This document shows positions 1-22,043 of a DNA stretch of 64,000 bases, in pieces. Where the stretch lies: NCBI GenBank assembly GCA_964552945.1, contig CAZKIP010000007.1, positions 745-64,744 on the forward strand, read 5' to 3'. Position 1 is the first letter of the stretch; each line of letters starts with the position of its first letter. Position numbers and translations under genes: made by a program. The notes beneath the pieces were generated by a model. It worked only from the letters and a program-made list of their open reading frames with translations, was not told the DNA's origin and made no database searches. Origin of the DNA: an uncultured Methanosarcinales archaeon (lineage in GTDB: Archaea > Nanobdellota > Nanobdellia > Woesearchaeales > GW2011-AR9).

Positions 1-2171
1 GCAGTTTCAATATAGAATCAAGTAATACTACATTTAATGTTTCTATCTTTGATGCAAACATTGAAACGGTAAAATTTGTATTCAACAATGGAACGGGAGC
101 AGATTTCAATGTTACACCACAAAATCAATCAGGGTATTGGGTTGCTAGTTACAATGTTTCAACATTAGATACAGCAACACAAACAGTGAAAGTATATGCA
201 AATGATTCATTAGGACATTTAAATTACACAGTCGAATTGACGTTTACAGTAAGTACAGATTCAGTTCCACCAAATGTAACCTGGACCACACCAATAAACA
301 CAAGTAATTTTTCAAAAACATCTAGTAATCAAACATTTAATGTAAGTATTAACGAAGCCAACGTATATGGAGTGTTATTCATCTTTGACAATGGAACAGG
401 AACAGAGTTTAATATTTCAGCAACAAACCAATCAGGAAAATGGGTCACTTCATACAATGTTTCATCTTTAGACGAAGCAACACAAACAGTTAGAGTGTCT
501 GCAAATGACACCTCAGGAAATGTAAACAACACACAAAAAATTACGATTACAACAGATTTCACACCGCCAAACGTGACATGGATTACTCCAACAAACACAA
601 GTAATTTCTCAATAGCTTCAAGTAACCAAACATTCAACACATCTATCTTTGATGCAAACATTAAAACAGTCTGGTTCTCATTTGATAATGGAACGGGAAC
701 AGATTTTAACATTACAGCAAATAATAACTCTGGGTATTGGGCTGCACCATATAATGTTTCAAGCTTAGCAGAAGGGATACAAACAATTATGATTATAGCA
801 AACGATTCAGCAGGAAATGTAAACACAACACAAAGTATTACAATAACAACAGATTACACTATACCTGTAGTTAACATCACATTCCCAACTAACGGAACCA
901 ATTTCAGTATTGGATCTTATAATCAAACTTTCAATGTAAGTATCCAAGAAAGAGACATAGGAACTGTCTTATTTAATTTTGATAATTCATCCGGAACAGG
1001 ATTCAACCTTACTCCAACAAATCAATCAGGATATTGGGTAGCTAGTTACAATGTTTCAAAGCTAGCAAATGGAACACACCTATTAACAATTTTAGTTAAC
1101 GACACTGTAAACAATAAAAATAATACGCAAACAATAAATTTCACTTTTGATAATAGAACAATGCCTGTCGCTCCTGCCCCTGCAGGTGCAGGAAATACAG
1201 GAAGTAGTGGAGGAGGAGGTTCAAGTAGTAGTTCAGGTGGTAGTGCCGCCCCAGCAGCACCATCTGCTCCTTCACCACCTTCTGCCCCAGCACCAGCAAA
1301 AACTCCAGCAAAAGCCCCAGCAAAAAAAGCTAGTGTAAGTAAATCAGCGGTAGGGAAAGGAGATTCTGTAAGCGCCCAAAAAAGTAAAGCTGGAAGAAAA
1401 GGTATTGCTACAGGTTTAGCTTTATTTCAGGATTTAGGTACAGTAACTGCAAAATATAGTGTTTATGTAATTCCTTTTGTAGGAATTATTTTAATGATGC
1501 TTGGGTTAAGTTATGCGATACCTGTTGCAAGAAGAAGGCTTCGCCATAAAATTCAAAGAGAAACAGTCATGGTTCATTCCCCTTATGTAGAATTAGAAAA
1601 AGAAGAAAGAAAGCCAATTAAACAGTGGGGTTTCCATCCCGATCCTTTGCTAGAAAAAGAATTCGAAGATTTAAACACCCAGATTGCCCACATCAGAAAA
1701 GATAGTGAAAAAGTTCCTTTCCATGCTCGGGTATCTAAAGGTTACGAATTAGCAACAAAAAGAGTTCACAAGGAGTTAGAAAAAATTAAAGGAAAAACTC
1801 TCCCTACTTCACAACCAAGAATTCTTTCTCAATCCGAAAAACACAGAGAACTTTTACAAAAGATGGAAGAAATAAATGCTAAAATTGCCAAATTGAAAAT
1901 GGCTAAGGGAGAAAAATTTAAGGTGATTAGCTCTGCTCCAAAAACTAGTATTAAAAATAAAGTAAAAGAAAAAAGAATCTTTCAAACAATAAGTAGAAAA
2001 ATAAGACCAAGAAGTATGATAGAAAAATACGAAATAACTGCCGCCAGGCAAGTAAAAAGAATAAGTAAAAAAGTTGAAAAGATGACTGTTGCAAATAATG
2101 AGCTTTCATCAATAGATGAAGAGATTGCTAAAGTTAAAAGAAAATTAGAACAACAAAAGAATAAATATTAA
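1..2171 (+). CDS. 5'-partial surface (S-layer-like) protein. At least four tandem Ig-like modules of about 99 aa, each carrying about 11 N-X-S/T sequons. These are followed by a Pro/Ala/Ser/Gly linker, one TM helix and a basic, Lys-rich coiled-coil cytoplasmic tail.
   Basis: The reading frame is open from base 3 and continues the same repeat as ORF 186..2171. The DNA repeat period is about 297 bp (motif starts near 267, 564 and 865). Sequons NVT/NTS/NFS/NQT/NGT recur densely. A TM segment (VYVIPFVGIILMMLGLSYAI) is followed by the tail RRRLRHK and a K/E-rich C-terminus. Confidence 0.6.
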   Translation, partial: SFNIESSNTTFNVSIFDANIETVKFVFNNGTGADFNVTPQNQSGYWVASYNVSTLDTATQTVKVYANDSLGHLNYTVELTFTVSTDSVPPNVTWTTPINTSNFSKTSSNQTFNVSINEANVYGVLFIFDNGTGTEFNISATNQSGKWVTSYNVSSLDEATQTVRVSANDTSGNVNNTQKITITTDFTPPNVTWITPTNTSNFSIASSNQTFNTSIFDANIKTVWFSFDNGTGTDFNITANNNSGYWAAPYNVSSLAEGIQTIMIIANDSAGNVNTTQSITITTDYTIPVVNITFPTNGTNFSIGSYNQTFNVSIQERDIGTVLFNFDNSSGTGFNLTPTNQSGYWVASYNVSKLANGTHLLTILVNDTVNNKNNTQTINFTFDNRTMPVAPAPAGAGNTGSSGGGGSSSSSGGSAAPAAPSAPSPPSAPAPAKTPAKAPAKKASVSKSAVGKGDSVSAQKSKAGRKGIATGLALFQDLGTVTAKYSVYVIPFVGIILMMLGLSYAIPVARRRLRHKIQRETVMVHSPYVELEKEERKPIKQWGFHPDPLLEKEFEDLNTQIAHIRKDSEKVPFHARVSKGYELATKRVHKELEKIKGKTLPTSQPRILSQSEKHRELLQKMEEINAKIAKLKMAKGEKFKVISSAPKTSIKNKVKEKRIFQTISRKIRPRSMIEKYEITAARQVKRISKKVEKMTVANNELSSIDEEIAKVKRKLEQQKNKY

Positions 2172-2175
2172 AAGA

Positions 2176-2697
2176 TTATTCGCTTAAAACGTTTATTTTA
2201 CATGAGCAAGGAAATTTCTTAGAAGCCCTCTTTAAAGCTTCTTTAGCAACCTTAACATTAGCCTTATTCACTCTAACTTCCATTAAAGTTTGACCTTCTT
2301 TAACCCTAGCTGCAGAACCAATAGATTTACCATAAGATTTCTTCATTCCCGTACTCAAACGATCTGCTCCAGCACCACTTGCCAAAGCGTTTTCTCTTAA
2401 GATGTGAAAAGGATAAATTCTGATTTTTAGTAAATAATCTTTTACCAAATTTCTTTCTAATAACCGATTTGAAGTCATTCTTGCCGACTCAATAGCATTG
2501 TGCCTAATATTCATGGCTCTTGTCGCATTAAGAACAACCACAGTATCAAATTCCTTATTTGGAGAACCCATAACAAACTTAATAACTTTCATATGAGGAA
2601 ACCCTCCCCTAACAAAGTTTTTAGTGGTATACTTACTAACTCGAGTGTAAGGCCTCTCTAGGTTCTGATACGCTGCAAACTTTCTTAATTTTGCCAT
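2176..2697 (-). CDS. rpl10e: 50S ribosomal protein L10e (uL16)
   Basis: The stretch GAGADRLSTGMKKSYGKSIGSAARVKEGQTLMEVR matches the conserved L10e/L16 core. The size is 173 aa. Confidence 0.85.
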   Translation of the reverse strand: MAKLRKFAAYQNLERPYTRVSKYTTKNFVRGGFPHMKVIKFVMGSPNKEFDTVVVLNATRAMNIRHNAIESARMTSNRLLERNLVKDYLLKIRIYPFHILRENALASGAGADRLSTGMKKSYGKSIGSAARVKEGQTLMEVRVNKANVKVAKEALKRASKKFPCSCKINVLSE

Positions 2698-2739
2698 TTT
2701 TAGCTGTAGATGGGGCTTATTTATAAAGATTACGGGTAA

Positions 2740-5214
2740 TTAAGCAACAGATTGAGAGAGATGTTGTTGTAAACAAAATTTAAATCTTGTCTTCAAACGA
2801 ATATCCTGTTTATTATTACTTTTACCAAGTTGACCATAAACTCCTCCTGAAGTTCCAGACTTAGGAAATGAAGCCCAAATGGGTGCAATTCTATCCCAAA
2901 TAGGCCAAAAATCATCGCTTTTAATAGCTTGTTTAAGTTTCGTAGTACTAACACCAGTACCATGAGCCAGTTTCAGTGCCCCTTTATCTTGATCTAAAGG
3001 ATAAAACCCATTAACGAATTCTTTATTTTTTTTCAGGCCACTATAAGTGCTCCATAAAAATTGGTACCTTCCAGCCCCAGTACTTCGACAACTTTTAGCT
3101 GAACAATCATTTTTTTGCAAACAAGATTTTTTCCAACAAATCCCTTTATTAGTAATTTCGCCGGTCTCAACAGGATGCCCTTTAAGACTCTTAATTTGTT
3201 TAAAAGTCACCATATAATCGTATCTACCTGCTTTATCTGATCCTAACTCAGCTAAGCCAATTGTATCTAGAAGAGCCCTTTCTTCAGGAGAACCATGCTG
3301 AGCAACACAAGCCCCTTCTTTTGGAGTTAAACCAACGTCTCCTTTTGATGCTCCTGAACTCGAAGAAACCTCCTTTTTTACGGGATACACAACATCAAAA
3401 TCCATCCAACCTTTGTCAACTACAAATATATTGCCTTTGATAGCAGCGTTTAAAGTTAATTTATCACTAACCTTCAACCACGCTTGATCTATTTCCTTAC
3501 ATTTCTTTCCATTTTGACAATTCTGCGGAACCTCTTGAACCGAAGGCACAGAACTTGCTCCAGAACCCCCCCCAGAGGTCCCACTAGCTTTTTTAGACAA
3601 ACCCCACTCTCTTCTTAGCTCATCTATCTGAGAACTACTCAAACCAGTTTGAGCAATATAAACATCTTGATATACCTTAACTCCAACTCTTGCATGGCCT
3701 TCTGAATTCCAATGTCTTTGATCACCGGAATTACAATAAGCACATTTATCCTTATCAATTGGGTCTTCTAAAGCAGGACCTAAATCAATTGCTTTAACAA
3801 CCCCTAATTGATCTTTGTTAAGCCAAGAACCCCTACTATTTAACAACTCATTATTAAATTTCTTTACACAACTGCTTTGCCAATTGTTACGTGGACTTAT
3901 TGTGGTGACATATATCTTTTTCACACCCACTTTTTGAGCTCTATCAACCATTTTTATTAAAGAAGTTTTACTGTAAGTACATTGACCGCCTTTTTTATAA
4001 ACCATATTCCCAGAAGGATTTATTATCAAAATATCTAAGGGGTCGCCATTAGGTTTCAAAAAATTCTCAGTAAGAAATTTCAATTGTCGATTAGGAGCAT
4101 AGCCTCCAATTGCTTCCACATTAATTTTTTGGCTACCTGCACAAAGTTTTTTTCTTAAGTAGTATTTCGCCCAACCATAACCAGGAGCAGTATTGGAAGC
4201 ACCAGTAATCCCCACATACAAGTCCTTGCATTTTTCAGAAGTTTTATCTTCTATAATTCCAGCCCCAATAGTAGAAACAGAAATGATTCCTTTATCTTTC
4301 AAAAATTCCTTCCCTTTTTCATAAATTGTTGCTGCATCGCCACTATACCAAACATTAAAAATTTCTCTTCTGTAAGCCTTGCCACTTTTCCAAAAATATA
4401 ATGTTTCAGCTTTCTCCCACATTAATTCCTGGGAAGGCTTTCCATCAACAACTTTTGAATAAATCCTCCACCCACTTTTATCTTGATAATAAAATAATTC
4501 ATCACCAAAATAAGTAGATGGATATTCTGTATTATCTTCCCAAGTTGTAGTAGGCCCATAAAGTGGGGGTGAAGAAACTTTATCATCTAAACCATTCCAT
4601 CCTTCCAAAGGAGAGGAGTATAATAACCGATTTTTACCTTCAGAAGCTTTCTCTGAATAGATATAAATTCCATCATCTGAAGAAACCCATTGTGCAATCT
4701 TATCTGAATTTTGTAAAATTACTAACCACCCACCTTGACTCCAACTAAAAATGTCAAGAACAAAATCCATTTGGCTAGGAGAAGCTAATAGGAGATAAGG
4801 ATATGGTGCAGAGGGAGGAGTTTGAACAGCAGGCCCAGATTCAAGAAAATTTTCTGGGATAAAACCGTCTTTCCATTCAGCATAAAGTTCTATTTTTCTA
4901 TAACTCTTTTTTCCCTCTTTTAACATAAATTCGTAATGTTTAGTTTTCCAATTAATCTCGCCATCTTTCTTAAGAACCAATAACCACCCTTCTTTAATCC
5001 ATGTCCAACCACCGATCTCTTCACCAGTTGCCAGAAAACTATCTGGATCTCCTGAAAATTCAGGTGCACCAAAAGGTTTGGGTTGAGAATTTGCATCAGA
5101 AATCATCTCATCAGTTAAAAGAGAAATCGCCTTTTCCAAAGTAGGTTCTTCAGCTAAAGAACTAAAAGTAAACATGGAGGCCAAAATTACAAGCAAAATA
5201 ATTATTTTCTTCAT
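2740..5214 (-). CDS. Secreted 824-aa multidomain protein with a central SGNH/GDSL-type hydrolase-like domain and a possible lysozyme or transglycosylase-like C-terminal region.
   Basis: N-terminal signal peptide MKKIIILLVILASMFTFSSLA. The SGNH block III (GxND-like) is ...INPSGNMV. The block V pattern DxxH...G is SGDQRHWNSEGHARVG. Gly/Ser linkers are present. The C-terminal segment STGAGRYQFLWSTY weakly resembles an SLT motif. Confidence 0.55.
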   Translation of the reverse strand: MKKIIILLVILASMFTFSSLAEEPTLEKAISLLTDEMISDANSQPKPFGAPEFSGDPDSFLATGEEIGGWTWIKEGWLLVLKKDGEINWKTKHYEFMLKEGKKSYRKIELYAEWKDGFIPENFLESGPAVQTPPSAPYPYLLLASPSQMDFVLDIFSWSQGGWLVILQNSDKIAQWVSSDDGIYIYSEKASEGKNRLLYSSPLEGWNGLDDKVSSPPLYGPTTTWEDNTEYPSTYFGDELFYYQDKSGWRIYSKVVDGKPSQELMWEKAETLYFWKSGKAYRREIFNVWYSGDAATIYEKGKEFLKDKGIISVSTIGAGIIEDKTSEKCKDLYVGITGASNTAPGYGWAKYYLRKKLCAGSQKINVEAIGGYAPNRQLKFLTENFLKPNGDPLDILIINPSGNMVYKKGGQCTYSKTSLIKMVDRAQKVGVKKIYVTTISPRNNWQSSCVKKFNNELLNSRGSWLNKDQLGVVKAIDLGPALEDPIDKDKCAYCNSGDQRHWNSEGHARVGVKVYQDVYIAQTGLSSSQIDELRREWGLSKKASGTSGGGSGASSVPSVQEVPQNCQNGKKCKEIDQAWLKVSDKLTLNAAIKGNIFVVDKGWMDFDVVYPVKKEVSSSSGASKGDVGLTPKEGACVAQHGSPEERALLDTIGLAELGSDKAGRYDYMVTFKQIKSLKGHPVETGEITNKGICWKKSCLQKNDCSAKSCRSTGAGRYQFLWSTYSGLKKNKEFVNGFYPLDQDKGALKLAHGTGVSTTKLKQAIKSDDFWPIWDRIAPIWASFPKSGTSGGVYGQLGKSNNKQDIRLKTRFKFCLQQHLSQSVA

Positions 5215-5798
5215 TTTATCAATTCAAACATTTTTGTTGTTATTATTTTTTTATTCAATTGGGGATTTTCAATTATAAAATCTACGGAATATTCTCCTGC
5301 CAAAGCTTCTTCAGATAAAGTAAAGTAATCTGCGAAAACTACCACTTCACTTTCCATCATGCTACTACCCGAGAATTGGTGAGAATTTTTTTGATCTGCT
5401 TCAAAGATGGTAAATCCTCTAGGATCTTTAACACGATAATTTCTTTTTAATGATATGACATTGCCAGAAACACTACTCTCAACAGCAAACCACAAATAAA
5501 CTCTCTCTCCTTCTGCAAAAGATTCTTTTTCTTGATCACAATACAAATCTTCATCAACAAAATCACAGAAAAGTAAATCTCTCAAAACTAAAGATCCCGC
5601 TCTATCAAAAGGAATAAATTCCGTATTCAAAATTTTCTGCTGACTTTCTCCATCTTTAACATTAATTACTTCCGTCTTTACTAAAATTAAAATAACCGAA
5701 CTTGTTAAAACTACAATAATTAAAAATATCAGTAAGGAAACGAACACTCCACCTTTTTTATTCATTTTATTTAGCTTCATTTTGGACAACACTTCCAA
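5211..5798 (-). CDS. Membrane-anchored hypothetical protein (N-terminal signal anchor, extracellular domain).
   Basis: One N-terminal TM helix (VFVSLLIFLIIVVLTSSVILILV). There is a 4-bp ATGA overlap with the downstream gene and a 22-bp overlap with the upstream giant gene, which implies co-transcription. Confidence 0.5.
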   Translation of the reverse strand: MEVLSKMKLNKMNKKGGVFVSLLIFLIIVVLTSSVILILVKTEVINVKDGESQQKILNTEFIPFDRAGSLVLRDLLFCDFVDEDLYCDQEKESFAEGERVYLWFAVESSVSGNVISLKRNYRVKDPRGFTIFEADQKNSHQFSGSSMMESEVVVFADYFTLSEEALAGEYSVDFIIENPQLNKKIITTKMFELIK

Positions 5799-8700
5799 TC
5801 GCTCGGATTTTTAATACCTCTTTTTTTCAAAATTGAATCTTGACATTGTAAGGACACACATTTATCTGCTTTAGTTTGATCAAAGGTAGACAACTTAGTA
5901 TCCTGACAACTAAAATCTTCATACTGTGGCAAAGTTTCGCATTTTGTTAAAGCACTTGTTTCCCCACAATACTTTTGGAATCTCTTATCAACATCATTAT
6001 CAATCAAACAAAGATACTTCTTTATTTTCTTATATTCAGTTGTTCCAGTTACATATGCAGGATATCCTCCTTCAGCAAATCCTGGTTCAAAGAATCTACC
6101 AAGCAAACTAATAATTTCTCCTCTGAAATTATCCTTCCCTTGCATCACATAGCTAGAAATCCAATAATATAAAGCACTAGCATCATCTAAATTATTCTCT
6201 TTTAATTTAACAATGGCTTCCGCTTTATTTTGAACTAACTGATAATTATCATTCATAAAATCGTCATGCATCCCTATGGCTACAGCAACTTCTTCTTTTT
6301 GAAGTTGTAATTTTATTTTCTGAGTATGAGAGTTTTTCCCAAAGGAACTTTTTGGAACTAAATTGATTGCAGTAAAACAATTATCTCCTGCTCCAGGTTG
6401 TAATAACTCCACTTTAACATTTAAAGAGCCCACATTACCTTTTGAAGAACTCGTCGAAGGAACAGTTTTATATTCACATTTCCCGTTACTCTTCTCAGGA
6501 TTACCTAGAACTTTCTTAAATCTAAACTCACCTAATGTAAAAACAGCAGCATCTATATCGCTCTTAGTTAAATCAATGTCTCCGCCATAAGATAAATAGC
6601 CATTCTTATTAAGATCATACTTCTTACTATTTCCACCAGGAATAACAGAAACATCATTATTACCAACTCTTAGTTGATATTTGTTATTGCTCTGTTTCTC
6701 AAAAAAGAAAGGCATGTTCACACTTTTTGAAGTTGCTTCATCTGGCCAAGCAACAATCTCCAGTTCTTTCCCATTTCCACCACATCCTGCATCACTCACA
6801 GTATCTCTTCTAACAATCGTACCTACTTTACCACCACTGATCATGTCTGGAGTAACTCTTCCTAAACTTAAACTTGGTGCAACCGTACCTGTGTAACCTT
6901 CTCCCAACAAAACAATTTGTTTATTCTTACCTTTGTTATCGGTAACTTTCAAACAAGCTTTATCATTACCTATTCTAACATAAGGTTTCACAACTATTTC
7001 ATTATTTAAAACAAAAAGGTTAGGGGTCTTACAATCAACAAATTCTTCAGTTTCTTTGTTATAACAACGTAAGAAAGGATGTTCTAAATAAGATTGTCCT
7101 CCTTGAAATAATGTACTTAATTCAGGACAGAGATATCTTCCTGTAGCAAAGTCAACTTGACATTGTGCAAATTCCTTACCTGCTTTATGACTTAAAGGGA
7201 AATAAAATAACCCTCCCTGTGCAGTTTGATATCCTTCATCAAAACACTCTTTAGGGTCTTGACCTGATTCTAAAAATAATTCTAATTTTACATGATCATA
7301 TCTGAAATGACTGCTGATTTGTAGAGGATTTTTGTAAGGAATATCATATGGTTGTAATCTAGTAAGTGATCCAAATTTAGAGCCACTTTGAATTATTTTT
7401 TCCTTATCACCCTGGAATGGAGTATTCTGGTTACTTGCTTTCAAACAATCACATCCTTGTCCATCACAAGATTGATCTATTCCTTTATTTCCTAAATCTT
7501 CTACACCAATACATTTTAAGCTAGTTCTGTATCCTCTTAACCGACATCCTGGAATAATATCCATCCCTAAATTGTAAGTAAATTGAGGTAAACCTTGAAT
7601 TGGGTCAAATGAAGTGAATTCCCTGTTAGCAATTAGAGGAAGAACACTAGTTTTCATAGGTCTTCCATAAGCAGAATCTGTAAGGAAATCAAAATTTGAT
7701 GGAAAGTCATAACCTAAAGCAAACAAACACATTGATTGAGTAAATCCTTCAGAACCAACTCTAAATTGTTGTTCAGCAACAGCACCATAATCATCTTTCA
7801 AATCGCTGGTTGAACCTTTCAACCCTTCTGGGATCCCTTGTCTAAGAGCTTTAAAAAGTTGAGTTGCGTCTCCATCCGTAGGGTCTTTAAGTTCGGGTAC
7901 ATCATCAAATGTAACAGGTGAACATTGGTTTGTTAAAAGAGAAATTCCACTATAGATCCAACTACAAACTGTGTTGGTGAAAAAAGTTTTACAAGAACCA
8001 GCATCCTGAATTGCTGAATTCTTAGCTGCTAAAATACAATTTCTAAATTGAATTAATCCATTCTGTAACAGAGTTAATTGATCTTGGATTCTAGGTAAAC
8101 ACATGGTTTGCCAAGCTGGAACATAATCTCTAGGGTTAATTCTAGCAATTTTTTTATCTCCCACAAAATCGGAGATGTGATCTAAACCAAAAGCGGCGGT
8201 GAAATCTCTTCCACCATAATATCTCCATTCAGGATAGTAAGTTCCTTTATTTCTGCCAGATTCTCTATAAATAGAAGATTGTCGGTAACTCCATTCTTCA
8301 ACAACTTCATTTTCTTTTTTCAAAGCAACCCTAACACTTTTACTTTTCTTTAAAGGAACGTCTTGTTTCTCACATGCACATTGATATTTATCTCCAGTAT
8401 TTTCTTCCACAAAACAATCTTTCGTATAACCAGCAGTGAAAGTTGAAGCATCAACTTTTTTACCAACACTACTTCTTAATTTAAGACCTGAAAGGCTTTT
8501 CTCTTCCTTATAACATCCACCACCAGTCAAATAAGCACCAGATTTTTCATCCAATCTATAACCATCTGAAACTGCACGGAAACCAGATTTAGCTTTACAA
8601 ACATTTTTACAACTTTTCTCTTCAGCAACACAAGCAGGCCCGTTTAGATCTCCTTTAAGAGCCAAAACTTTGGATTTAGTTTGTCCAGGATTTAAGACAG

Positions 8701-11254
8701 GATTCAATCTCCAGATTCCTCTGTTATCTAATTTAGTCACATCCTTTGCACAACTTGGATTAGGATCATTCTCAGTACACCTATAGAAAAAAGTTCCCTC
8801 TGCATCTCTCCAACAAGTAAAAGAACTTTCTTTTTGTTCTTTCTTAATTCTTAAAAGTTCAGATGCTTGAGGATTCTTCTCAAGAATAGTTTGACAGTTT
8901 TCTACAGGAGTTAAATAACGACAAAGGCTTGAAGCAACACATTGCTGTTGCTCTAAAATAACTTTTTGTACCTCAGCTTCATCTTTATCTTCGGTCCATC
9001 TTGCAGGAACGGCTCGACAAAAGAAACGATCACAAACTGCTTTGTATAAAGTATCTAACTTTTGTTCAGATTCCCATGCTGCAGCAGTATCTGGACATTT
9101 TTTAGATAATGATTTCAATTCAAAATTGACTGGCAGATTTGCATTAGGGTTTCCAATTAATTTTTTCCAAGCGGCTATTGTTGAATCTAAATAAAGATCT
9201 AGCTGGCCATTTCCAGTAGGACATTTGTCATCCTTTTTTCTACTAGTCCAAGGTTCATACAAAGAAACTACAACTCTTCTTACTTTAAAAACAGCCCTAG
9301 TTAACCATGAGGAATAACAACTTACTCCTGTCCAAAATACAACTGGTTCAAGAATACTATTAATTCTTTCAATTTGATGAATTGTATAATTTACCGCAGC
9401 CATTCCTTCATTTGCTAAAAAGTCCGGAACCAAAGCAGAACTTTCTATAGGAACATCAACAAAATAACCAAGATCTTTACAATCAACTTGAGTTTTACTT
9501 TTACTCCAAGCATTGTTACCTTCTCTTTCTTGGTAAGTTACCAAAATTTTCAAAGGGATTTTTAATTGTCTTTTTTCAAAATCTTTCCAAAAATCCTCAT
9601 CTATTTCAGAAAAGTCTGAAGCCCTCAAAAGTTTAGTAGAAAGATAATACATTGTCTTATCGGGTTTCACAGACTGTGCATTTAAACTTCCGCTGGGAAT
9701 TAACCTACAACCAGCACTATAATCATCCTTTTCAGCATTAGCTTTAGTACAAGCTGGTTGGAACCTTACATCAATTATTCTATATCCTTGTTCATAAGCA
9801 TTTTTCTCTGCATCAAATTTTCCAATTGCCCCACCATTATAAGTAATGTTATAAACCGCTTGAATCGATTCTCTACCTTCTTCCATCAATTGGGGATTTA
9901 ATTTGAAAGGTTGAGGAGGAAATTGTGGTGGAGAAAAAACATTGAACGCAAAATCTGGTGAAGAACAACTATTAATGTAAACCGTTTTAGTTGCATGACC
10001 TACCTTACCCGTCTTATCTTCAGCCAAAATGTAAACCCTATATTGAAGTCTTTTTGCCGCCGATATTTCGTCCAACTTTGGAATTAATATTTCTTGCAAA
10101 CCTGTAGGAACTTCTCTAGGATGAAGATCTTTCAAAGTAGTTAACGAAAAAGCGCTGAATTCAAATTCTTCAAAGACAAATTTTCCTTCACTATCTGCCA
10201 CTACTTTTATAATTGCTTTTTTGAAATTCAAACGATATTCATCTACACTTGGTCTAAAAACATAAAGGTAAACTTCTGCTCCTGGTTCAGTGGTACCTTC
10301 AATTCCTGTTTCTGCCCTTCCTTCATAATATTCATTTCCTTTAGTAAATTGGAAAGTTACAGAAGGTTTTTCTGTATCAACATTTAGCGTTCTAGTTTCT
10401 TTACTTTCCCATCCGGCCAAATCTGTAGCAATTACTTCTAAAACATTGTCCCCTTCATTCAAATTTATTTTTTGGTCAATTATCGTTCCAGTAAATTCAT
10501 TCACAGAACTATTACTTAAAATTATTTCGATGGTACTATTCTCAGAAACAGTACCTTTCAAAGTAAAACTTTTATCTTCAATAAAATCAGGTATTTTTGA
10601 GATAGTTATTTTTGGTTTTATAGTGTCGGTAAAAGTAATACCTTCCACAGAAGCGGTGTTTCCAGAGAGGTCAGAAGATTCAATTCTGATATTATTATGT
10701 TGATTAGCTAAAAGAAAAATATTTTCAAAAATAAAGGAAGCATCTTTCTCCTCTCCAACAATTTTTGCGGTTACACTATCAACCTGTAAATCGTTAACAA
10801 AAATCTTAACATCTGCATTTGCTTCAGTTTTCCCAGATAAAGCCATTTTGTTTCCTTTGTTAGAAGAAGGAATTACAACTTCAAGAGTTGGAGGAGTTAA
10901 ATCAGGAGCCAGAGTTGTAAAGGAGTAGAACTCACCATTATTGTCATCAACTAAACTATTACTTTCAACTGAATAAAAATAAGTTGTTTCGGATTTTAAA
11001 TTGGAAATTAAAAATTTATGTGAAGAAAGTTGGGTAGAATCTCCCTTAGTAATCAAATTGTCTTTACTCTCACCATATCTAACAAAACTATCGGCAGGTT
11101 CATCGGTAATCCAGCTAATTGAAGCAGTATTATCAGTTACATCTGATTTAACATCAGAGATTTGTAAAGCAGATACCAAAGAGATATTCAAAATAAGCAG
11201 AACTAGTAAAATCAAAAAAAGGTTCGCTTTTTTATTTGTCATCTTGTTTATCAT
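5777..11254 (-). CDS. Giant (1825-aa) secreted cysteine-rich protein with an N-terminal fibronectin-III-like domain. Candidate adhesin or surface-interaction protein.
   Basis: Signal peptide MINKMTNKKANLFLILLVLLILNISLVSA. The FN3-like segment is ...SDVTDNTASISWITDEPADSFVRYGESKD...TTYFYSVES. There are more than 60 Cys throughout the extracellular body. The ORF is uninterrupted over 5.5 kb in an AT-rich genome. Confidence 0.6.
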   Translation of the reverse strand: MINKMTNKKANLFLILLVLLILNISLVSALQISDVKSDVTDNTASISWITDEPADSFVRYGESKDNLITKGDSTQLSSHKFLISNLKSETTYFYSVESNSLVDDNNGEFYSFTTLAPDLTPPTLEVVIPSSNKGNKMALSGKTEANADVKIFVNDLQVDSVTAKIVGEEKDASFIFENIFLLANQHNNIRIESSDLSGNTASVEGITFTDTIKPKITISKIPDFIEDKSFTLKGTVSENSTIEIILSNSSVNEFTGTIIDQKINLNEGDNVLEVIATDLAGWESKETRTLNVDTEKPSVTFQFTKGNEYYEGRAETGIEGTTEPGAEVYLYVFRPSVDEYRLNFKKAIIKVVADSEGKFVFEEFEFSAFSLTTLKDLHPREVPTGLQEILIPKLDEISAAKRLQYRVYILAEDKTGKVGHATKTVYINSCSSPDFAFNVFSPPQFPPQPFKLNPQLMEEGRESIQAVYNITYNGGAIGKFDAEKNAYEQGYRIIDVRFQPACTKANAEKDDYSAGCRLIPSGSLNAQSVKPDKTMYYLSTKLLRASDFSEIDEDFWKDFEKRQLKIPLKILVTYQEREGNNAWSKSKTQVDCKDLGYFVDVPIESSALVPDFLANEGMAAVNYTIHQIERINSILEPVVFWTGVSCYSSWLTRAVFKVRRVVVSLYEPWTSRKKDDKCPTGNGQLDLYLDSTIAAWKKLIGNPNANLPVNFELKSLSKKCPDTAAAWESEQKLDTLYKAVCDRFFCRAVPARWTEDKDEAEVQKVILEQQQCVASSLCRYLTPVENCQTILEKNPQASELLRIKKEQKESSFTCWRDAEGTFFYRCTENDPNPSCAKDVTKLDNRGIWRLNPVLNPGQTKSKVLALKGDLNGPACVAEEKSCKNVCKAKSGFRAVSDGYRLDEKSGAYLTGGGCYKEEKSLSGLKLRSSVGKKVDASTFTAGYTKDCFVEENTGDKYQCACEKQDVPLKKSKSVRVALKKENEVVEEWSYRQSSIYRESGRNKGTYYPEWRYYGGRDFTAAFGLDHISDFVGDKKIARINPRDYVPAWQTMCLPRIQDQLTLLQNGLIQFRNCILAAKNSAIQDAGSCKTFFTNTVCSWIYSGISLLTNQCSPVTFDDVPELKDPTDGDATQLFKALRQGIPEGLKGSTSDLKDDYGAVAEQQFRVGSEGFTQSMCLFALGYDFPSNFDFLTDSAYGRPMKTSVLPLIANREFTSFDPIQGLPQFTYNLGMDIIPGCRLRGYRTSLKCIGVEDLGNKGIDQSCDGQGCDCLKASNQNTPFQGDKEKIIQSGSKFGSLTRLQPYDIPYKNPLQISSHFRYDHVKLELFLESGQDPKECFDEGYQTAQGGLFYFPLSHKAGKEFAQCQVDFATGRYLCPELSTLFQGGQSYLEHPFLRCYNKETEEFVDCKTPNLFVLNNEIVVKPYVRIGNDKACLKVTDNKGKNKQIVLLGEGYTGTVAPSLSLGRVTPDMISGGKVGTIVRRDTVSDAGCGGNGKELEIVAWPDEATSKSVNMPFFFEKQSNNKYQLRVGNNDVSVIPGGNSKKYDLNKNGYLSYGGDIDLTKSDIDAAVFTLGEFRFKKVLGNPEKSNGKCEYKTVPSTSSSKGNVGSLNVKVELLQPGAGDNCFTAINLVPKSSFGKNSHTQKIKLQLQKEEVAVAIGMHDDFMNDNYQLVQNKAEAIVKLKENNLDDASALYYWISSYVMQGKDNFRGEIISLLGRFFEPGFAEGGYPAYVTGTTEYKKIKKYLCLIDNDVDKRFQKYCGETSALTKCETLPQYEDFSCQDTKLSTFDQTKADKCVSLQCQDSILKKRGIKNPSDWKCCPK

Positions 11255-11272
11255 ATTACTTTTTTCTTATCT

Positions 11273-13258
11273 TCATTTGATTATTTCAGGCGAAGATACC
11301 AAGGAACTTTTTCCTTCCAATCCACCTATAAAAGTATAAAGTTCATCTTCTGAAAGATCTTCTTCACCAATGGTGTGGAAAATTATTTTTTTACTTTCTT
11401 TCAAATCAGTCCAGGAAGTAGTCCAATTACCTTTGTAACCTGCAACAAAATCGTCATCTTCAAATACATTAATCTCTAATTGATATGCAAAATCAGCTTC
11501 AGCTAAAAATGATAAGGAGTTATAACCTTCCACTTCCACACCTTTCTTTGAAGAAACAAAGACGGATTCTAAAAATGGTTTACCTTCCACGTTTTTCTTT
11601 AATGAATTCAGGGTAATCATGTAAACTGCGTTCTCACTAAGTTCTTCTCCTGAGCTAATAGTAGTTCCATCTAAATTATATTTTAGAACTTCAATTTTTT
11701 CAACAGGAACTTCAAATAAAGGAGTTAAGTGGAGTTCAACTTGTTTCCCACTCTCTGAAACTACTCTTTTCCAATCTTGTAAATATCCTCCTTTTTCTCC
11801 TCTCAAAATTCCACCAACACAATAAGGAAAATTTCTCGTGAAACCTGCTTGGTAACCACTATCTGCAAAATCAAATTCGGTAGCTCCCATATCACATTGG
11901 TATTTCACACAAGTGAAACTCACATTAACATCTTCTAAAGGTTCAGAAAACTTTACTCCACTAAGTGGGCTATCAACGGTTTCCCATGTAAGAATGGTCA
12001 TTGGAAGTTTTTTATTTGAACAAAACAAATTGCTTGGAGGTAAATTAACTGAGTTTGGATCTCTAGCCACAATTACATTTTCCCTATTTGGCATATTTCT
12101 CTGCAAATGTACGGTAAAAGCTGTATTGAAAACAAAATCAGACCTTTGATCTCTCAATTGAACTAAGACCGGATAAGTTACATCATAAGTAAATTTCCAA
12201 TTTTGTAAACACACTTTTGAAAGAAGATCTGAACCACCCGTCATGCCACTCCTCATTTTTCCTCCAATGTTTGGAGTTACTTGAAAAGTAAAGGGATAAT
12301 TGTTATGATAACGGAAAGTTACCGTTAAATCTTCTTTTTGAAATTCATTTCCTACATCCCAATTATAATGATGTTTGTAATATGAAAATTCTTCAGGAAA
12401 TTCAACAACCTCTGTTCCTTTAACTTTAACTTGCGGAATGTTTACTCTCAACAAATCCTGCAAAGCCATCTTTGCCAAATTTACGTCCCACTCTTTCTCC
12501 TTACAGCTAACTTCAAATCCTGCTAAAGGTAGCCTTGGATGATCTAAAGAAAGTAAATCTTGTGTAAGATCTTCGAATTTGAGGGTGTTAACTTCCTGCT
12601 CAACAACCGCTTTAGCAGTGTCATATAATGATTTAAATCTAGTAGGCGACTCAGCATTATGGTTAATTACTTCCGTAACTAAATCTCCATGTTTATCTCT
12701 AATATCAATTTCCCAATGAACATTGAAAAGAACCCTACTTTCAACTAATTCTGTATCAGAATTTATTTCACTCTTTTCTACAAAATCATAAATTTCACCA
12801 TAAGCCTGCTCACTAAACACACATTCACTTAAATGTGCTTCAAGGTAAGTATCAACCCGTTCTTTAATTTCCAACAAAGAAGGAATTCTCAAATTGGAAC
12901 CATATGCCCAATAAGGAACAACGTTTACAGGAGTTATCTTTAAATGAGAACTCTCATCATTAACAATTTCTAAAGGTACGTCAATGTAACCTCCTTGTAA
13001 AGCTATTTTTTCTAACGCTTCGTCTCCCACTCCCTTAATACAAGAAACGATGAATTCTTCAACAGAACTTTTTTCGGTAGGGATTATTTTTGCAGGAATA
13101 AAATTTACCGCTTCTTTTTGTACCAAGATAACTAGTACTAAAACTAAAACAATAAAAATTCCCAGAATTATGAAAACCGTTACCTGTCCTTTTCCAGAGG
13201 GAGCGAACTTGCTTAAAATACTGCCTATTCTAAGTCCATCTTCCCTCTTTTTGTACAT
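11273..13258 (-). CDS. Membrane-anchored 661-aa extracellular protein, first gene of the surface cluster.
   Basis: N-terminal TM anchor VTVFIILGIFIVLVLVLVILV followed by a large non-repetitive ectodomain. It lies 18 bp upstream of the giant gene on the same strand. Confidence 0.55.
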   Translation of the reverse strand: MYKKREDGLRIGSILSKFAPSGKGQVTVFIILGIFIVLVLVLVILVQKEAVNFIPAKIIPTEKSSVEEFIVSCIKGVGDEALEKIALQGGYIDVPLEIVNDESSHLKITPVNVVPYWAYGSNLRIPSLLEIKERVDTYLEAHLSECVFSEQAYGEIYDFVEKSEINSDTELVESRVLFNVHWEIDIRDKHGDLVTEVINHNAESPTRFKSLYDTAKAVVEQEVNTLKFEDLTQDLLSLDHPRLPLAGFEVSCKEKEWDVNLAKMALQDLLRVNIPQVKVKGTEVVEFPEEFSYYKHHYNWDVGNEFQKEDLTVTFRYHNNYPFTFQVTPNIGGKMRSGMTGGSDLLSKVCLQNWKFTYDVTYPVLVQLRDQRSDFVFNTAFTVHLQRNMPNRENVIVARDPNSVNLPPSNLFCSNKKLPMTILTWETVDSPLSGVKFSEPLEDVNVSFTCVKYQCDMGATEFDFADSGYQAGFTRNFPYCVGGILRGEKGGYLQDWKRVVSESGKQVELHLTPLFEVPVEKIEVLKYNLDGTTISSGEELSENAVYMITLNSLKKNVEGKPFLESVFVSSKKGVEVEGYNSLSFLAEADFAYQLEINVFEDDDFVAGYKGNWTTSWTDLKESKKIIFHTIGEEDLSEDELYTFIGGLEGKSSLVSSPEIIK

Positions 13259-13275: not shown

Positions 13276-13295
13276 ATTGCTTTATAAAGCTTGTG
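13276..13295 (-). promoter_or_regulatory. Archaeal TATA box (TTTATAAAG) about 27 nt upstream of the ATG at 13258. This suggests a leaderless transcript for the surface-protein cluster.
   Basis: The palindromic TTTATAAAG at 13281-13289 is spaced from the start codon at 13258 as expected for a BRE/TATA element. Confidence 0.4.
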
Positions 13296-14713: not shown

Positions 14714-15625
14714 TTATGGGTTCAGAACCCTTTCTCTGTAAAGTCTAAAGAAATTTGCTACAACCTTCTCAATTCTTTGTTTCACTAGAGGATCTTCTAA
14801 AACTGCGGTAACTTCGGCATGTGAAGTAGAGTTAGTACCATCCTCTTTTGTTGAGTTGGTTATTAAACTCATCCCAACACAATTCATGCCCCTATTTCTT
14901 GCAGCTTCCACTTCAGGGATAGTTGACATCCCCACTGCTTGTAATCCCATATTCCTGAAAGCAATAACTTGCGCTTTAGTTTCATAAGTAGGACCAATTA
15001 CCGCACCATAAGATCCTAGATGCATCTCTCCAGCTTTCATTAATAAAGCAGTTAATTGTTCATCATAAGCATCATGCATTGGAACAAATCGTTGTAAATT
15101 TTCTTGGTCAATAGTTTTAAAATCCATCATTCTTCCAGATAAAGGACAAGGAATACCCAAAGACATATGGCTTGATAAAGCCATTAATTCTCCTACCTTA
15201 TAACTTGTATCTAATCCTCCTGCAGCATTGGTTACAAAATAATTTGCCACACCTAAATTAGCCATTACATTGACTGCAAAAACGGTCTCTAAAATCCCTT
15301 GATTGAATGGTTTATCAACAACTTCATAAAAATGAGTCCTTCCTTGTAAACCAATAATTGGTACCCCTTCTAATTCTCCAAGGTGTAGATTACCAGCATG
15401 ACCTTTTACTGTAGGTACAGGAAATCTAGGAATTTCACTATAAGGAATTATTCTAGAATTATCTATTTTATCAGCCAATCCTCCCAATCCAGAACCTAGA
15501 GTTAAAGCAAATAAAGGCTTAAAATCACCCATCTGTTCTTTTAAGTATTGAGCTGCTTCATCAACATGAGCTTCATAATTACGTTGAAAATCCAATGCGT
15601 CAGTGAGAATTTTTAATGAGTCCAT
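14714..15625 (-). CDS. Purine nucleoside phosphorylase (trimeric PNP/MTAP family).
   Basis: The motifs GSGLGGL, VKGHAGNLHLGELEGVPIIGLQGRTHFYE and MSTIPEVEAAR match the PNP family-1 signatures. Confidence 0.8.
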   Translation of the reverse strand: MDSLKILTDALDFQRNYEAHVDEAAQYLKEQMGDFKPLFALTLGSGLGGLADKIDNSRIIPYSEIPRFPVPTVKGHAGNLHLGELEGVPIIGLQGRTHFYEVVDKPFNQGILETVFAVNVMANLGVANYFVTNAAGGLDTSYKVGELMALSSHMSLGIPCPLSGRMMDFKTIDQENLQRFVPMHDAYDEQLTALLMKAGEMHLGSYGAVIGPTYETKAQVIAFRNMGLQAVGMSTIPEVEAARNRGMNCVGMSLITNSTKEDGTNSTSHAEVTAVLEDPLVKQRIEKVVANFFRLYRERVLNP

Positions 15626-16420: not shown

Positions 16421-16539
16421 GCTTCTTCCAGAATAACATACCTTTGTATACTGGCGCCCTGACGAAGTCGAGCCGATGAGCGAAGCTCATGATAACGGCG
16501 TGCTCCAGTATACAAATTCACTATATTCTGGATGAAGCA
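16421..16539. repeat. Copy 2 of the nested-hairpin element. It exactly fills the gap between two convergent genes.
   Basis: Outer inverted repeat CTTCTTCCAGAATA / TATTCTGGATGAAG. Inner stem GTATACTGG / CCAGTATAC. Internal pairs CGCC/GGCG. Apical stem ATGAGC-GAA-GCTCAT. About 54% GC in a roughly 33% GC genome. Confidence 0.55.
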
Positions 16540-16544
16540 GTTAA

Positions 16545-18795: not shown

Positions 18796-18915
18796 GTTAG
18801 TTTAGAAATTACTTTAATATATATAGGTTTTGCTAGTGTGTTAATAGTCTTTCTGTAGGAGGGGTTTGTTTATTGTACTGAAAGATTGTTTAGAAACTAA
18901 AAAAGGGAGATATGT

Positions 18916-20734: not shown

Positions 20735-20744
20735 AGGTATAAAG

Positions 20745-22043
20745 ATGAAAATTGGAATTATTGGCGGATCTGGATTATACAAAATTGATGAATTAGAAAA
20801 TTCTAAAGACATAGAAGTTAATACCAAATATGGTACACCTTCTTCACTTTTAAAAGTTGGAACAATTAAAGGAATAGAAGTAGCGTTCATTGCTAGACAT
20901 GGAAGAGAACATACAATTCCTCCATCTAAAGTTAACAATAGGGCCAATATACAAGCTCTAAAAGATTTTGGTTGCACCCATATCTTGGCTACAACCGCTT
21001 GTGGAAGTTTGAAAAAAGAAATTGGAAGAGGCCATTTAGTTATCCTAGACCAATTCATCGATTTTACTCGACATAGAAACATTACTTTTTACGATGAATT
21101 CAAACCAGGAGAACACGGGCACACACCCATGGCAACACCTTTCGCAGAAGAATTAAGAGAACTATTAATTCAAAGTTGTGAAGAACTAAATTTAGAATTT
21201 CATAAAAAAGGAACAGTAGTTACAATTGAAGGTCCTCGTTTCTCCACAAAGGCTGAAAGTAAAATGTTTGGTTTATGGGGTGCAGATGTGATAAACATGT
21301 CCATTGCTCCTGAGACAGCTCTCGCTAACGAATTAAAAATACCTTATGCAGCTGTAGCCATGAGCACCGATTACGATTGTTTGTTTGACGACGTTCCTCC
21401 AGTAACTCATGAAGAAGTTATGAAAGTTTTCAGTGAAAATGTGAGTAAGGTAATTAATTTGCTTGTAAAAACTATTCCTAAAATTTCTTTGGAAACTATT
21501 GAGGAAAATGAAGAGGAGTATTACGATTTGAAAAGTTCCATCAGAACAATTCCTAACTGGCCCAAGGAAGGAGTAATGTTTAGAGATATTACAACCTTGA
21601 TAAGTAACCCAGAAGCTTTCAGTTATTCCATCAAAAAATTAAAAGAACAATATCAAAATAAAAACATTACAAAAATTGCGGGGATTGAATCGAGAGGATT
21701 TATTTTCGGCGCTCCCTTAGCTAAGGAAATGGGCATCCCTTTTATTCTAATTAGAAAGAAAGGAAAACTTCCTTCTGAAACTGTTTCTCAAGAATATGAA
21801 TTAGAGTATGGAACTGATGTAATAGAATTACATAAGGACGCAGTTTCTCCTGCAGATAACGTTTTAATTGTAGATGATTTATTGGCAACCGGAGGAACTA
21901 TGAAAGCTGCTTGTCAACTTGTGGAGAAATTGCAAGGAAAAGTTGCAGGGTTATCTGTTGTCATAGATCTTCCAGATTTGAAAGGCAAAGAAAAATTAGC
22001 CAATTATGAGATATTTAGTTTAGTAGAATTTGCAGGAGAATGA
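20745..22043 (+). CDS. Fusion protein: 5'-methylthioadenosine (purine nucleoside) phosphorylase N-terminal domain plus adenine phosphoribosyltransferase C-terminal domain.
   Basis: The N-terminal half (MKIGIIGGSGLY..ARHGREHTIPPSKVNNRANIQALKDFGCTHILATTACGSL) aligns with MTAP. The C-terminal half (NWPKEGVMFRDITTL...VLIVDDLLATGGTMKAA) is a canonical APRT PRPP-binding domain. The ORF is continuous over 432 aa. Confidence 0.85.
   Translation: MKIGIIGGSGLYKIDELENSKDIEVNTKYGTPSSLLKVGTIKGIEVAFIARHGREHTIPPSKVNNRANIQALKDFGCTHILATTACGSLKKEIGRGHLVILDQFIDFTRHRNITFYDEFKPGEHGHTPMATPFAEELRELLIQSCEELNLEFHKKGTVVTIEGPRFSTKAESKMFGLWGADVINMSIAPETALANELKIPYAAVAMSTDYDCLFDDVPPVTHEEVMKVFSENVSKVINLLVKTIPKISLETIEENEEEYYDLKSSIRTIPNWPKEGVMFRDITTLISNPEAFSYSIKKLKEQYQNKNITKIAGIESRGFIFGAPLAKEMGIPFILIRKKGKLPSETVSQEYELEYGTDVIELHKDAVSPADNVLIVDDLLATGGTMKAACQLVEKLQGKVAGLSVVIDLPDLKGKEKLANYEIFSLVEFAGE

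Follow-up and report, generated by a model that had tools for sequence, protein, structure and literature searches.

Which function keeps four genes for secreted or membrane-anchored proteins together in the chromosome of an uncultured archaeon, and on whose cell envelope do their products act? The question is raised by a 64,000-nucleotide stretch of DNA (called the window here, at its full length) from an uncultured Methanosarcinales archaeon, which the GTDB places in the Woesearchaeales (GW2011-AR9; assembly GCA_964552945.1, contig CAZKIP010000007.1, positions 745 to 64,744 of the forward strand). An initial annotation of the window had singled out a co-directional cluster of four genes, here named A to D, as a candidate module for cell-surface attachment or host interaction. 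Judged by their synteny in related genomes, the four genes form a cassette that DPANN archaea of the Woesearchaeota type conserve in their core chromosome; in it, A, B, and C are the invariant partners and the fourth position is taken by a predicted secreted enzyme with a fast turnover of its domains. The earlier idea that a secreted hydrolase modifies the envelope of another cell is strengthened, and it becomes specific to bacterial murein through the domains of D and of its counterparts in relatives. Attachment and host interaction are what we would infer from these sequences. The genes and their candidate promoter are the following:

Gene A, 11273-13258, minus strand: 661 amino acids (aa), longest open reading frame (ORF)
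Gene B, 5777-11254, minus strand: 1825 aa as longest ORF, 1821 aa in the public gene call (start at Met5)
Gene C, 5211-5798, minus strand: 195 aa from a TTG start, probably 189 aa from position 5780 (public call)
Gene D, 2740-5214, minus strand: ORF of 824 aa
TTTATAAA box, 13281..13288, minus strand: putative archaeal promoter for A to D, recognised in the sequence itself

The four minus-strand ORFs had been annotated with these coordinates and lengths, and all of them were reproduced. The spacing reported with them, a gap of 18 nucleotides (nt) between A and B and overlaps of 22 nt between B and C and of 4 nt between C and D, holds for the longest ORFs, while the starts in the public gene calls of the same contig result in a gap of 30 nt and two overlaps of 4 nt each. 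The three junctions are too tight for a promoter. A single transcript from a TATA box near 13285 had been suggested, and the TTTATAAA box was found 22 nt ahead of the start codon of A, at 13288-13281, with its centre about 26 nt upstream of this ATG; transcription of A to D as one unit is plausible. A second, identical box is located at 2727-2720 on the minus strand, in the 42-nt spacer behind D and 22 nt before the ATG of the next gene downstream, which encodes ribosomal protein uL16 (2176-2697). Because uL16 has its own box, the transcription unit plausibly stops at D, and the identical distance between box and ATG at A and uL16 suggests leaderless or near-leaderless transcripts. A scan for bacterial promoters and terminators yielded no enrichment compared to shuffled sequences, as expected for an archaeon. 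Each of the four proteins contains exactly one hydrophobic segment, which is always N-terminal and would act as export or anchor signal, in agreement with the secreted or anchored nature that had been proposed for all of them.

Is this arrangement a peculiarity of one genome? In a scan of one genome per species, relatives of B were identified in 109 genomes, and 80 loci were fetched. Gene A is present in 79 of 84 loci, and C directly follows B in all 57 loci that extend at least 3 kb beyond B. The genes are therefore strictly syntenic and not scattered in relatives. This gene order recurs in all of these 57 loci, with A-B-C-enzyme being essentially invariant, and the commonest junction in relatives is an overlap of 4 nt. 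A PAC2 gene is found upstream of the cassette in three Pfam-annotated loci, many other loci have a gene of comparable size ahead of A, and genes for enolase and RelA/SpoT are often located downstream. Recurring downstream genes of 410 and 629 aa had been considered as further parts of the cassette and were rejected, as they represent this housekeeping enolase and RelA/SpoT. Alignments of A, B, and C span 94-100% of their length, however far the genomes have diverged. The median alignable fraction of the fourth gene is 0.59 if the B proteins are 70-90% identical, and 0.00 at a B identity of 30-45%. Pfam scans of 53 fourth-gene products revealed the following domains (member counts):

SLT, murein-active: 9
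Phage_lysozyme2, murein-active: 5
Peptidase_M23, murein-active: 4
Amidase_2, murein-active: 4
Hydrolase_2 (SleB-type), murein-active: 4
Peptidase_M15_4, murein-active: 3
Glucosaminidase, murein-active: 2
GH25, murein-active: 1
Polysacc_deac_1 (polysaccharide deacetylase), murein-active: 1
Lipase_GDSL_2, SGNH-type: 12
FGE-sulfatase-like, most frequent Pfam match, without established peptidoglycan role: 13
DUF2272, without established peptidoglycan role: 8
Metallophos, without established peptidoglycan role: 6
DUF218, without established peptidoglycan role: 3
Exo_endo_phos, without established peptidoglycan role: 2

Peptidase_M74 also occurs among the fourth-gene products, a lambda-lysozyme-like domain was detected in 11 of them with a local hidden Markov model (HMM), and several loci encode two enzymes of the fourth-gene type in tandem. 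The murein-active families act on bacterial murein, in which they cut glycan strands, stem peptides, or cross-bridges, but not on archaeal walls, and the bonds between D-amino acids that such enzymes cleave are missing from archaeal walls. Because D is predicted to be directed against peptidoglycan and the fourth genes of relatives carry a changing set of hydrolase domains, of which many are murein-specific, the envelope concerned is most probably bacterial. The FGE-sulfatase-like, DUF2272, Metallophos, DUF218, and Exo_endo_phos domains may have other bacterial envelope polymers as targets or may be binding domains.

What kind of enzyme is encoded in the window itself? D is a secreted, basic protein (isoelectric point 8.8) of four modules, whose boundaries were determined by BLAST against relatives:

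Residues 22-310, 4285..5151, minus strand: Trp-rich N-terminal domain, common only to the fourth-gene product of locus L021
Residues 311-525, 3640..4284, minus strand: SGNH/GDSL hydrolase domain with Ser340, Asn403, Asp498, and His501
Residues 565-610, 3385..3522, minus strand: 45-residue module with two Cys, a candidate docking tag (iterated HMM)
Residues 620-824, 2743..3357, minus strand: lambda-lysozyme-like domain (lytic transglycosylase type) with Glu656 and GAGRYQ at 713-718

The N-terminal domain neither matches a Pfam family nor contains an internal repeat detectable by BLAST. Searches with full-length D did not result in any Pfam match, and nothing in NCBIfam scored above the cut-off for the cassette proteins. 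A word-indexed homologue search misses D although the database holds an exact D entry, and the relatives of D were therefore taken from the loci collected via B. The family profile of the SGNH domain matches solved SGNH hydrolases (E-value (E) 2e-15) and, more weakly, the peptidoglycan O-acetyltransferase PatB and a DUF459 protein. The typical blocks I (GxS), II (G), III (N), and V (DxxH) are present in D (GAS at 338-340, PSGN at 400-403, D498-x-x-H501), of which Ser340 and His501 are invariant; in the numbering of the alignment of D relatives G28/S30, G61, and H191 are invariant. The homologous segments of relatives match Pfam Lipase_GDSL/GDSL_2. An SGNH-hydrolase-like domain had already been annotated in D and is supported by this profile match and the catalytic residues, but the lambda-lysozyme-like domain behind it had been overlooked. 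As a single sequence this domain matches the lambda lysozyme structures 1AM7/3D3D with an E of only 0.014, which improves to 2e-28 with a profile built from 13 such domains, whose match spans residues 5-140 of chains with 154-158 residues. It also matches PHROG 90 'endolysin' (E 5.6e-16). In the 13-sequence alignment the WAEGT motif has an invariant Glu, which corresponds to Glu656 in D and which we take to be equivalent to the catalytic Glu19 of lambda R. The lambda R-type lysozymes, which carry this Glu in a (W/L)AEG motif, have a GRYQ motif in addition, and release 1,6-anhydro-MurNAc from murein, presumably correspond to family GH104 of CAZy. D is thus predicted to combine an SGNH esterase and a lambda-lysozyme-type lytic transglycosylase, with the catalytic residues of both being intact. 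O-acetylation at C6 of N-acetylmuramic acid (MurNAc) blocks lytic transglycosylases, and SGNH-type esterases lift that block. Because one activity removes what hinders the other, the pairing in D is biochemically sensible. From this pairing we infer that the SGNH domain may be an O-acetyl-peptidoglycan esterase, with a sequence that is equally compatible with other substrates.

How could such exchangeable enzymes be connected to three invariant proteins? The small module of D has the consensus xCxNxQRCKEIDxVWxxI...VWDxxxxxWKxFxxxY, with C-x5-C-x-E-I-D-x-(V/A)-W ... W as the core. With an iterated HMM it was found in 66 ORFs of 58 loci, including 53 of the 57 loci that extend far enough downstream. 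All 63 module-containing ORFs of the latter are encoded behind B and on its strand, with a median distance of 563 nt from the stop codon of B, and the module was not detected elsewhere in the 10-kb flanks to either side of those loci. D is the sole module-bearing ORF in the window. The position of the module varies: it is located either right after the signal peptide or between catalytic domains, and it occurs beside different catalytic domains. No Pfam family covers the module, its profile did not match any PDB sequence below an E of 0.4, and dockerin or cohesin Pfam models matched neither A-D nor appeared among the top families of the 53 fourth-gene products. Module-less loci are L070, whose fourth-gene product (16426-25626, plus strand) comprises 3067 residues with SLT, VanY, and Amidase_2 domains and EF-hand-like motifs, L011 with a GDSL enzyme at the fourth position, L066 with two M74 peptidase genes, and L050, in which enolase directly follows and an enzyme gene is missing.

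In some species the catalytic domain is part of B itself. The B protein of L006 ends with a lambda-lysozyme-like domain, which is 39.6% identical to residues 619-818 of D and is not accompanied by the module. Further B proteins are fused C-terminally to Peptidase_M74 (L024), SH3_3 (bacterial SH3; L043), and Phage_lysozyme2 (P0036), and within a distant clade, which is described below, to VanY (E 3e-31) and M23. The VanY fusion, found in L114, was not detected on other B proteins with an iterated HMM. Because murein-directed domains are fused to B, which is classical fusion evidence, the separate enzyme and B probably also work together physically.

What, then, are the three constant proteins? 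B starts with a Sec-type signal peptide, which is followed by a stalk of FN3- and Ig-like domains and a disulphide-rich core without known fold:

Residues 30-400, 10055..11167, minus strand: FN3-like and Ig-like domains, adhesin-type stalk (Pfam, family profile)
Residues 401-1825, 5780..10054, minus strand: Cys-rich core of beta-sandwiches and long helices (AlphaFold model, Foldseek)

The FN3-like domain that had been noted at the N-terminus is borne out by a Pfam match to Pur_ac_phosph_N (residues 40-114, E 2.8e-8), and an Ig-like domain (Glucodextran_B/Big_13) follows at 225-294. The family profile matches the biofilm surface protein Bap (7dm0, E 8e-7) over residues 133-283; this match to PDB sequences is confined to the N-terminal Ig region. 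More than 60 cysteines had been reported for B, but the actual count is 50 (2.7%, compared to a median of about 1% in the window), many of which are invariant in the family. The AlphaFold model of the core (residues 401-1600; predicted local distance difference test (pLDDT) 75) contains beta-sandwiches and long helices, one of them of about 60 residues, and Foldseek did not reveal anything at E<=1e-3 in the PDB or among the viral predictions of BFVD. Because structural matches are lacking in both, the core represents an orphan fold by the searches made. A Tc-toxin A-type translocator was considered for it and rejected, because the best PDB match, XptA1, only reached an E of 8.7e-3, a probability of 0.08, and a template modelling (TM) score of 0.05. 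About 48 homologues of the full-length type, with 33-53% identity, belong to assemblies labelled Woesearchaeota or Nanoarchaeota, where all of them are 'hypothetical' or lack a name.

A consists of a basic leader, a hydrophobic helix beginning with GQVTVFIILG, alpha/beta domains, and C-terminal beta-sandwiches. Its N-terminus is listed as follows:

Residues 1-45, 13124..13258, minus strand: leader and hydrophobic helix, candidate class III (prepilin-type) signal (family N-terminal motifs)

Close homologues of A number 246, none of which contains a Pfam domain; the 120 listed are 44-72% identical. A profile search in 1.84 billion cluster representatives resulted in 6654 members, 905 of them at E<=1e-30, and most have 620-690 aa. 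A itself did not match Pfam, NCBIfam, or PHROG families, nor did its profile match any PDB sequence. The N-terminus (K/R)(K/R)-(G/A)-Q-V-T-(I/V)-F-I-I-L-G is nearly invariant, and the motif x[GA]Q[IVL]T.[FY] is present in 71 of 75 close homologues. Among distant A proteins, 116 of 140 sequences begin with a basic leader, mostly of three to eight residues, that leads directly into [GAS]Q[IVL][TS] and the hydrophobic helix (for example MKKRGQITVFIIVG), the 140 being those that start with Met among the 150 best-scoring representatives. The leader of the window protein is longer than typical with 24 residues. Position +5 after the putative cleavage site is Phe or Tyr in A. The AlphaFold model (pLDDT 82) shows an N-terminal helix of 28 residues, alpha/beta domains, and several beta-sandwiches. 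In the PDB, Foldseek only found generic tandem beta-sandwich proteins at TM-scores of about 0.1 (SdrD, SlaB, pilins); among these many generic matches the beta-sandwich region of A aligns to Sulfolobus SlaB (8qox_B) with an E of 7e-5 and TM-scores of only 0.12 and 0.17.

C is built similarly at its start, with the basic leader KKG and a hydrophobic helix, and continues with a domain of about 130 aa with one conserved Cys pair (C78, C87, and G168 are invariant in the homologue alignment). It did not match Pfam, NCBIfam, or PHROG, and its profile did not match PDB sequences either. Taken together, none of the cassette proteins is an outright match to known S-layer or pilus systems in Pfam, NCBIfam, PHROG, or Foldseek searches. 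Hallmarks of class III (prepilin-type) signals are a short basic leader ending with G/A/S and a hydrophobic helix of about 20 residues directly after it. The N-terminus of C follows the pattern [KRNQ][GAS], four residues, and hydrophobic stretch in 63 of 70 homologues; at +5 after the putative G/A/S cleavage site, 40 of these 63 have Glu and 11 have Gln. The N-termini of A and C are thus pilin-like and could be of class III type. As no curated model confirms it, this assignment stays a lead.

A and B have a wider distribution than the complete cassette. Distant A proteins were collected from metagenomes; their identity to the reference of the distant-A alignment is 26-33%, and most of their genes are followed by a gene for a B-family protein of about 1340-2270 aa where complete, and by a different third gene of about 280 aa. 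The A-B pair therefore represents the ancient core, with C and the tagged enzyme marking the clade of the window. In several of the distant loci (L087, at 1787-9990, L091, L096, L100-L102, L131, L152, L163, and L164) a second cassette is located directly upstream of A-B. Its genes encode an A paralogue of 700-730 aa followed by proteins of 1000-1190, 590-1210, and about 265-290 aa. Its large proteins were considered as B homologues and rejected, because they only have one Ig-like stretch in common with B (hhalign probability 85%).

How do these parts fit together? On balance we lean towards a surface scaffold of A, B, and C that would carry a docked, tagged enzyme for the digestion of bacterial peptidoglycan at cell contact, with a cargo that tracks differences between walls. 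A and C would be held in, or extracted from, the membrane via their pilin-like N-termini of class III type, and together with the secreted giant B they would assemble into a scaffold at the surface of the archaeon. The 45-residue module would dock the enzyme onto this scaffold, and the fusion of a catalytic domain to B would dispense with docking. On contact with a bacterium the complex would digest the sacculus locally: the SGNH esterase would strip O-acetyl groups from MurNAc, and the transglycosylase would then cut the glycan strands. The opened wall could serve attachment, feeding, or killing, and the turnover of catalytic domains would mirror chemical differences between the walls of bacterial hosts or prey. 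That A-B-C even constitute a so far unrecognised pilin-anchored organelle for cross-domain attack or feeding, in which the disulphide-rich giant of orphan fold docks interchangeable hydrolases through the 45-residue module, much like a cellulosome directed at peptidoglycan, and thereby breaches the wall of a bacterial host at contact, is a possibility that we put forward tentatively and with considerable doubt.

Several observations weigh against a scaffold with docked enzymes. None of the Pfam models for class III signals or pilins matches any of ten N-terminal segments at E<=10 except TadE/G-like at an E of about 1.4, and the C protein of the window has Ser instead of Glu at +5. Pilus machinery (peptidase A24, T2SSE, or T2SSF domains) was not found among the window genes scanned. 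Part of the cargo does not have an established peptidoglycan role (FGE-sulfatase-like 13, DUF2272 8, Metallophos 6), and the enzymes might just be secreted into the medium. In the distant clade the HMMs of module, SGNH, and lysozyme domains did not match, and a separate enzyme gene was not detected; a murein peptidase is found at the end of only 2 of 17 long distant B proteins. A-B thus also occur without hydrolases and may in the first place serve as a general structure of the envelope. Because distant A-B lack a detected module or enzyme gene, we keep a substantial probability for A-B as a general envelope component with recruited hydrolases.

In its strict form this alternative regards A and B, perhaps with C, as the ordinary envelope, B being an S-layer-type canopy on a stalk of A, and the hydrolase as a free protein for scavenging or for killing competitors that is co-transcribed only. 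We consider it unlikely, with evidence on both sides. The A family is huge and nearly uniform in length, A-B persist without a detectable enzyme gene in the distant clade, the chromosomal context is housekeeping (PAC2, uL16, enolase), and the beta-sandwich region of A finds SlaB in the Foldseek search, although at TM-scores that do not set it apart from many generic beta-sandwich matches. Free archaeal peptidoglycan hydrolases that kill bacteria have been documented (PMC12352652), and peptidoglycan of dead bacteria has been proposed as an amino-acid source of Pacearchaeota (PMC11537232). DPANN S-layer candidates, however, have been described as sequon-rich Ig-fold proteins (10.1101/2023.10.27.564410), and A and B contain only 3.0 and 2.7 sequons per 1000 residues compared to 61 in an Ig-repeat protein encoded adjacent to the cassette. 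Also, S-layer proteins are poorly conserved above the genus level (10.1101/2023.10.27.564410), which does not fit the identities among the listed A homologues. Finally, the repeated fusions to B and a module restricted to the cassette favour a physical coupling of enzyme and surface proteins.

A type IV pilus-like fibre or pseudopilus, with A and C as pilin subunits, B as tip adhesin, and a hydrolase that clears the path through the bacterial wall, overlaps with the scaffold reading and differs from it mainly in geometry. The giant proteins of predatory Omnitrophota also adjoin genes for class III signal peptides and pilus-type secretion (10.1101/2023.11.21.568195). The leader, [GAS]-Q-[IV]-[TS] motif, and hydrophobic helix in most A representatives (116/140), the Glu at +5, a trait of bacterial-type pilins, in many C homologues, and the long helix with which the A model opens would all suit pilin subunits. 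It is hard to reconcile with them that Pfam models for class III signals or pilins do not match and that ATPase, platform protein, and prepilin peptidase were not found among the scanned window genes and the Pfam-annotated genes of three loci. In addition, 661 aa are far above the size of fibre-forming pilins, and class III signals are also present on non-pilus surface proteins of Sulfolobus. We therefore regard a fibre as improbable.

It could also be imagined that the enzymes are autolysins for a murein-like wall of the archaeon itself and that A-B-C are wall-associated machinery, because the set of transglycosylases, amidases, endopeptidases, carboxypeptidases, deacetylase, and SGNH domains resembles that of bacterial autolysins. 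However, genes for Mur ligases, MraY/MurG, or penicillin-binding proteins are not present among the scanned genes of the window or of the three Pfam-annotated loci, and swaps of the catalytic type between species with B proteins of 70-90% identity are unexpected for housekeeping autolysins. Murein transglycosylases are treated in the literature as normally absent from archaea and have been read as bacteria-directed in these lineages (PMC8204110). Autolysins are accordingly very improbable. A mobile, viral, or defence element, for which only the phage-type lysozyme domain speaks (lambda R, PHROG 90 endolysin, the phage 'hub' protein 8kea), hardly deserves consideration, given that A, B, and C lack PHROG matches and the B core a viral structural match, that tblastn with the lysozyme domain of D found nothing in 50,697 phage records, that the loci examined have the same housekeeping neighbourhood (PAC2 upstream), and that the GC content is flat across the region in the window.

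To which known systems can the cassette be compared? Aciduliprofundum is said to possess a horizontally acquired GH25 lysozyme, reportedly described by Metcalf et al. in 2014. The cellulosome would offer a likeness in its plan, namely a giant non-catalytic secreted protein, surface anchors, and varied enzymes with one small common module. The cassette differs from it in lacking cohesin and dockerin matches, in its module of about 45 aa, which has a Cys pair and is no Ca-binding dockerin, and in peptidoglycan as the substrate. Phage tail hydrolases, lambda R, and the transglycosylases of secretion systems and flagella similarly combine a wall-cutting domain, separate or fused and exchangeable, with a large structure that crosses an envelope, and the C-terminal domain of D is homologous to lambda R. 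In contrast to these phage and bacterial systems the cassette is cellular and archaeal, and A, B, and C do not have viral homologues. SlaA/SlaB of the Sulfolobales are also encoded by adjacent genes and comprise a large secreted and a smaller membrane-anchored beta-sandwich protein, and there is the weak Foldseek match between A and SlaB. However, A is anchored N-terminally, A and B are poor in sequons, B is rich in Cys, and the conservation of the cassette is higher than usual for S-layers. The 'archaeovorin' giants of Omnitrophota (West-Roberts et al. 2023, 10.1101/2023.11.21.568195) have a link to wall degradation and neighbouring genes for class III signal peptides in common with the cassette. 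They differ in being bacterial, in their size of more than 10,000 aa with the catalytic domains inside the giant, and in the secretion system of more than 10 subunits that precedes them; homology of archaeovorins to B was not detected. Membership of the cassette in the cellulosome, phage tail lysin, or Omnitrophota-giant families is thus not supported.

The closest precedents concern the enzymes. Castelle et al. 2021 (PMC8204110) reported large extracellular proteins with murein transglycosylase domains (fam00969, up to 3,000 aa) from Pace- and Woesearchaeota, for which they proposed that bacteria are the hosts, and Vigneron et al. 2022 (PMC9723730) proposed 'vampiristic' Woesearchaeota based on GH23 genes. 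The lineages, the kind of enzyme, and the inferred bacterial-wall target are the same as here, and the 3067-aa product of L070 is probably a member of fam00969. However, the passages of the two papers considered here treat single proteins or CAZy counts and not A-B-C, a fixed gene position, a broad range of catalytic domains, the module, or fusions to B. Strock et al. 2025 (PMC12352652) demonstrated experimentally that archaeal peptidoglycan hydrolases kill bacteria and found these enzymes to be prominent and diverse in Nanoarchaeota. These are likewise bacterial-type murein hydrolases that archaea use against bacteria; they act as free, bacteriocin-like proteins, whereas the gene of the cassette enzyme belongs to one operon with those of three surface proteins and its product contains a cassette-specific module. 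A description of an operon or gene neighbourhood was not found in that article. The initial annotation had called the operon apparently undescribed. Within the open-access literature this seems right for the architecture but not for the peptidoglycan hydrolases of Woesearchaeota and the idea of bacterial hosts, both of which have been published. The three-protein core of unknown fold, the cassette-specific module, the rapid cargo exchange, and the fusions to B appear to be new in the same literature.

The remainder of the window mostly contains archaeal housekeeping genes, including those for PAC2, uL16, TFIIB, LonB, family B DNA polymerase, GAPDH, and enolase; the GC content is about 33-35% and flat across the region, and tRNA or tmRNA genes were not found in the window. 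The Ig-repeat protein adjacent to the cassette is encoded on the plus strand at the beginning of the window (region 1-2171; ORF 186..2171), which covers the C-terminal part of an 1834-aa gene running off the window start. Its tandem Ig-like repeats (Pfam Big_13, Big_3_3, Big_7) precede a linker rich in Ser, Pro, and Ala, a single transmembrane helix, and a coiled-coil tail rich in Lys, and 44 N-x-S/T sequons were counted in 722 residues. The protein is closer than B to published candidates for DPANN S-layer or surface glycoproteins. A second giant gene (28977..33821, plus strand) encodes 1614 aa with lamin-tail, Nup98-type S59 autopeptidase, and NPCBM-associated domains and is preceded by an ORF of 488 aa without Pfam match. 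This region (27428-33821, plus strand) possibly encodes a further surface module, and for an archaeon the autopeptidase domain is unusual. Next to enolase, the region 53840-57028 on the minus strand encodes a RelA/SpoT protein of bacterial type (HD, RelA_SpoT, TGS, and ACT domains); that an archaeon encodes a (p)ppGpp enzyme with bacterial architecture deserves attention. A thymidine/AMP-phosphorylase-type protein (39674-41146, minus strand; Glycos_transf_3, PYNP_C) and the purine nucleoside phosphorylase genes at 14714..15625 and 20745..22043 are consistent with nucleotide salvage.

What would the cassette mean for the biology of these archaea? The Woesearchaeales are among the most diverse and widespread DPANN groups, and the cassette bears on the open question of their hosts. 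According to PMC8204110, it is open whether any DPANN archaeon has bacterial hosts. With the cassette, scattered reports of murein transglycosylases become a lineage-wide unit of fixed position that ties core surface proteins to enzymes predicted to be directed only against bacterial walls. It also supplies three large protein families without known fold or function, and its enzymes amount to a natural collection of modular murein hydrolases. The genes of A and B can serve as metagenome markers of the system, the module and A, B, and C provide handles for studies of the contact site, and the cargo enzymes might allow predicting hosts from peptidoglycan chemotypes. If the organelle existed as tentatively outlined above, a large uncultured radiation of Woesearchaeales would be parasites or predators of bacteria, and their cargo would report the wall type of the host.

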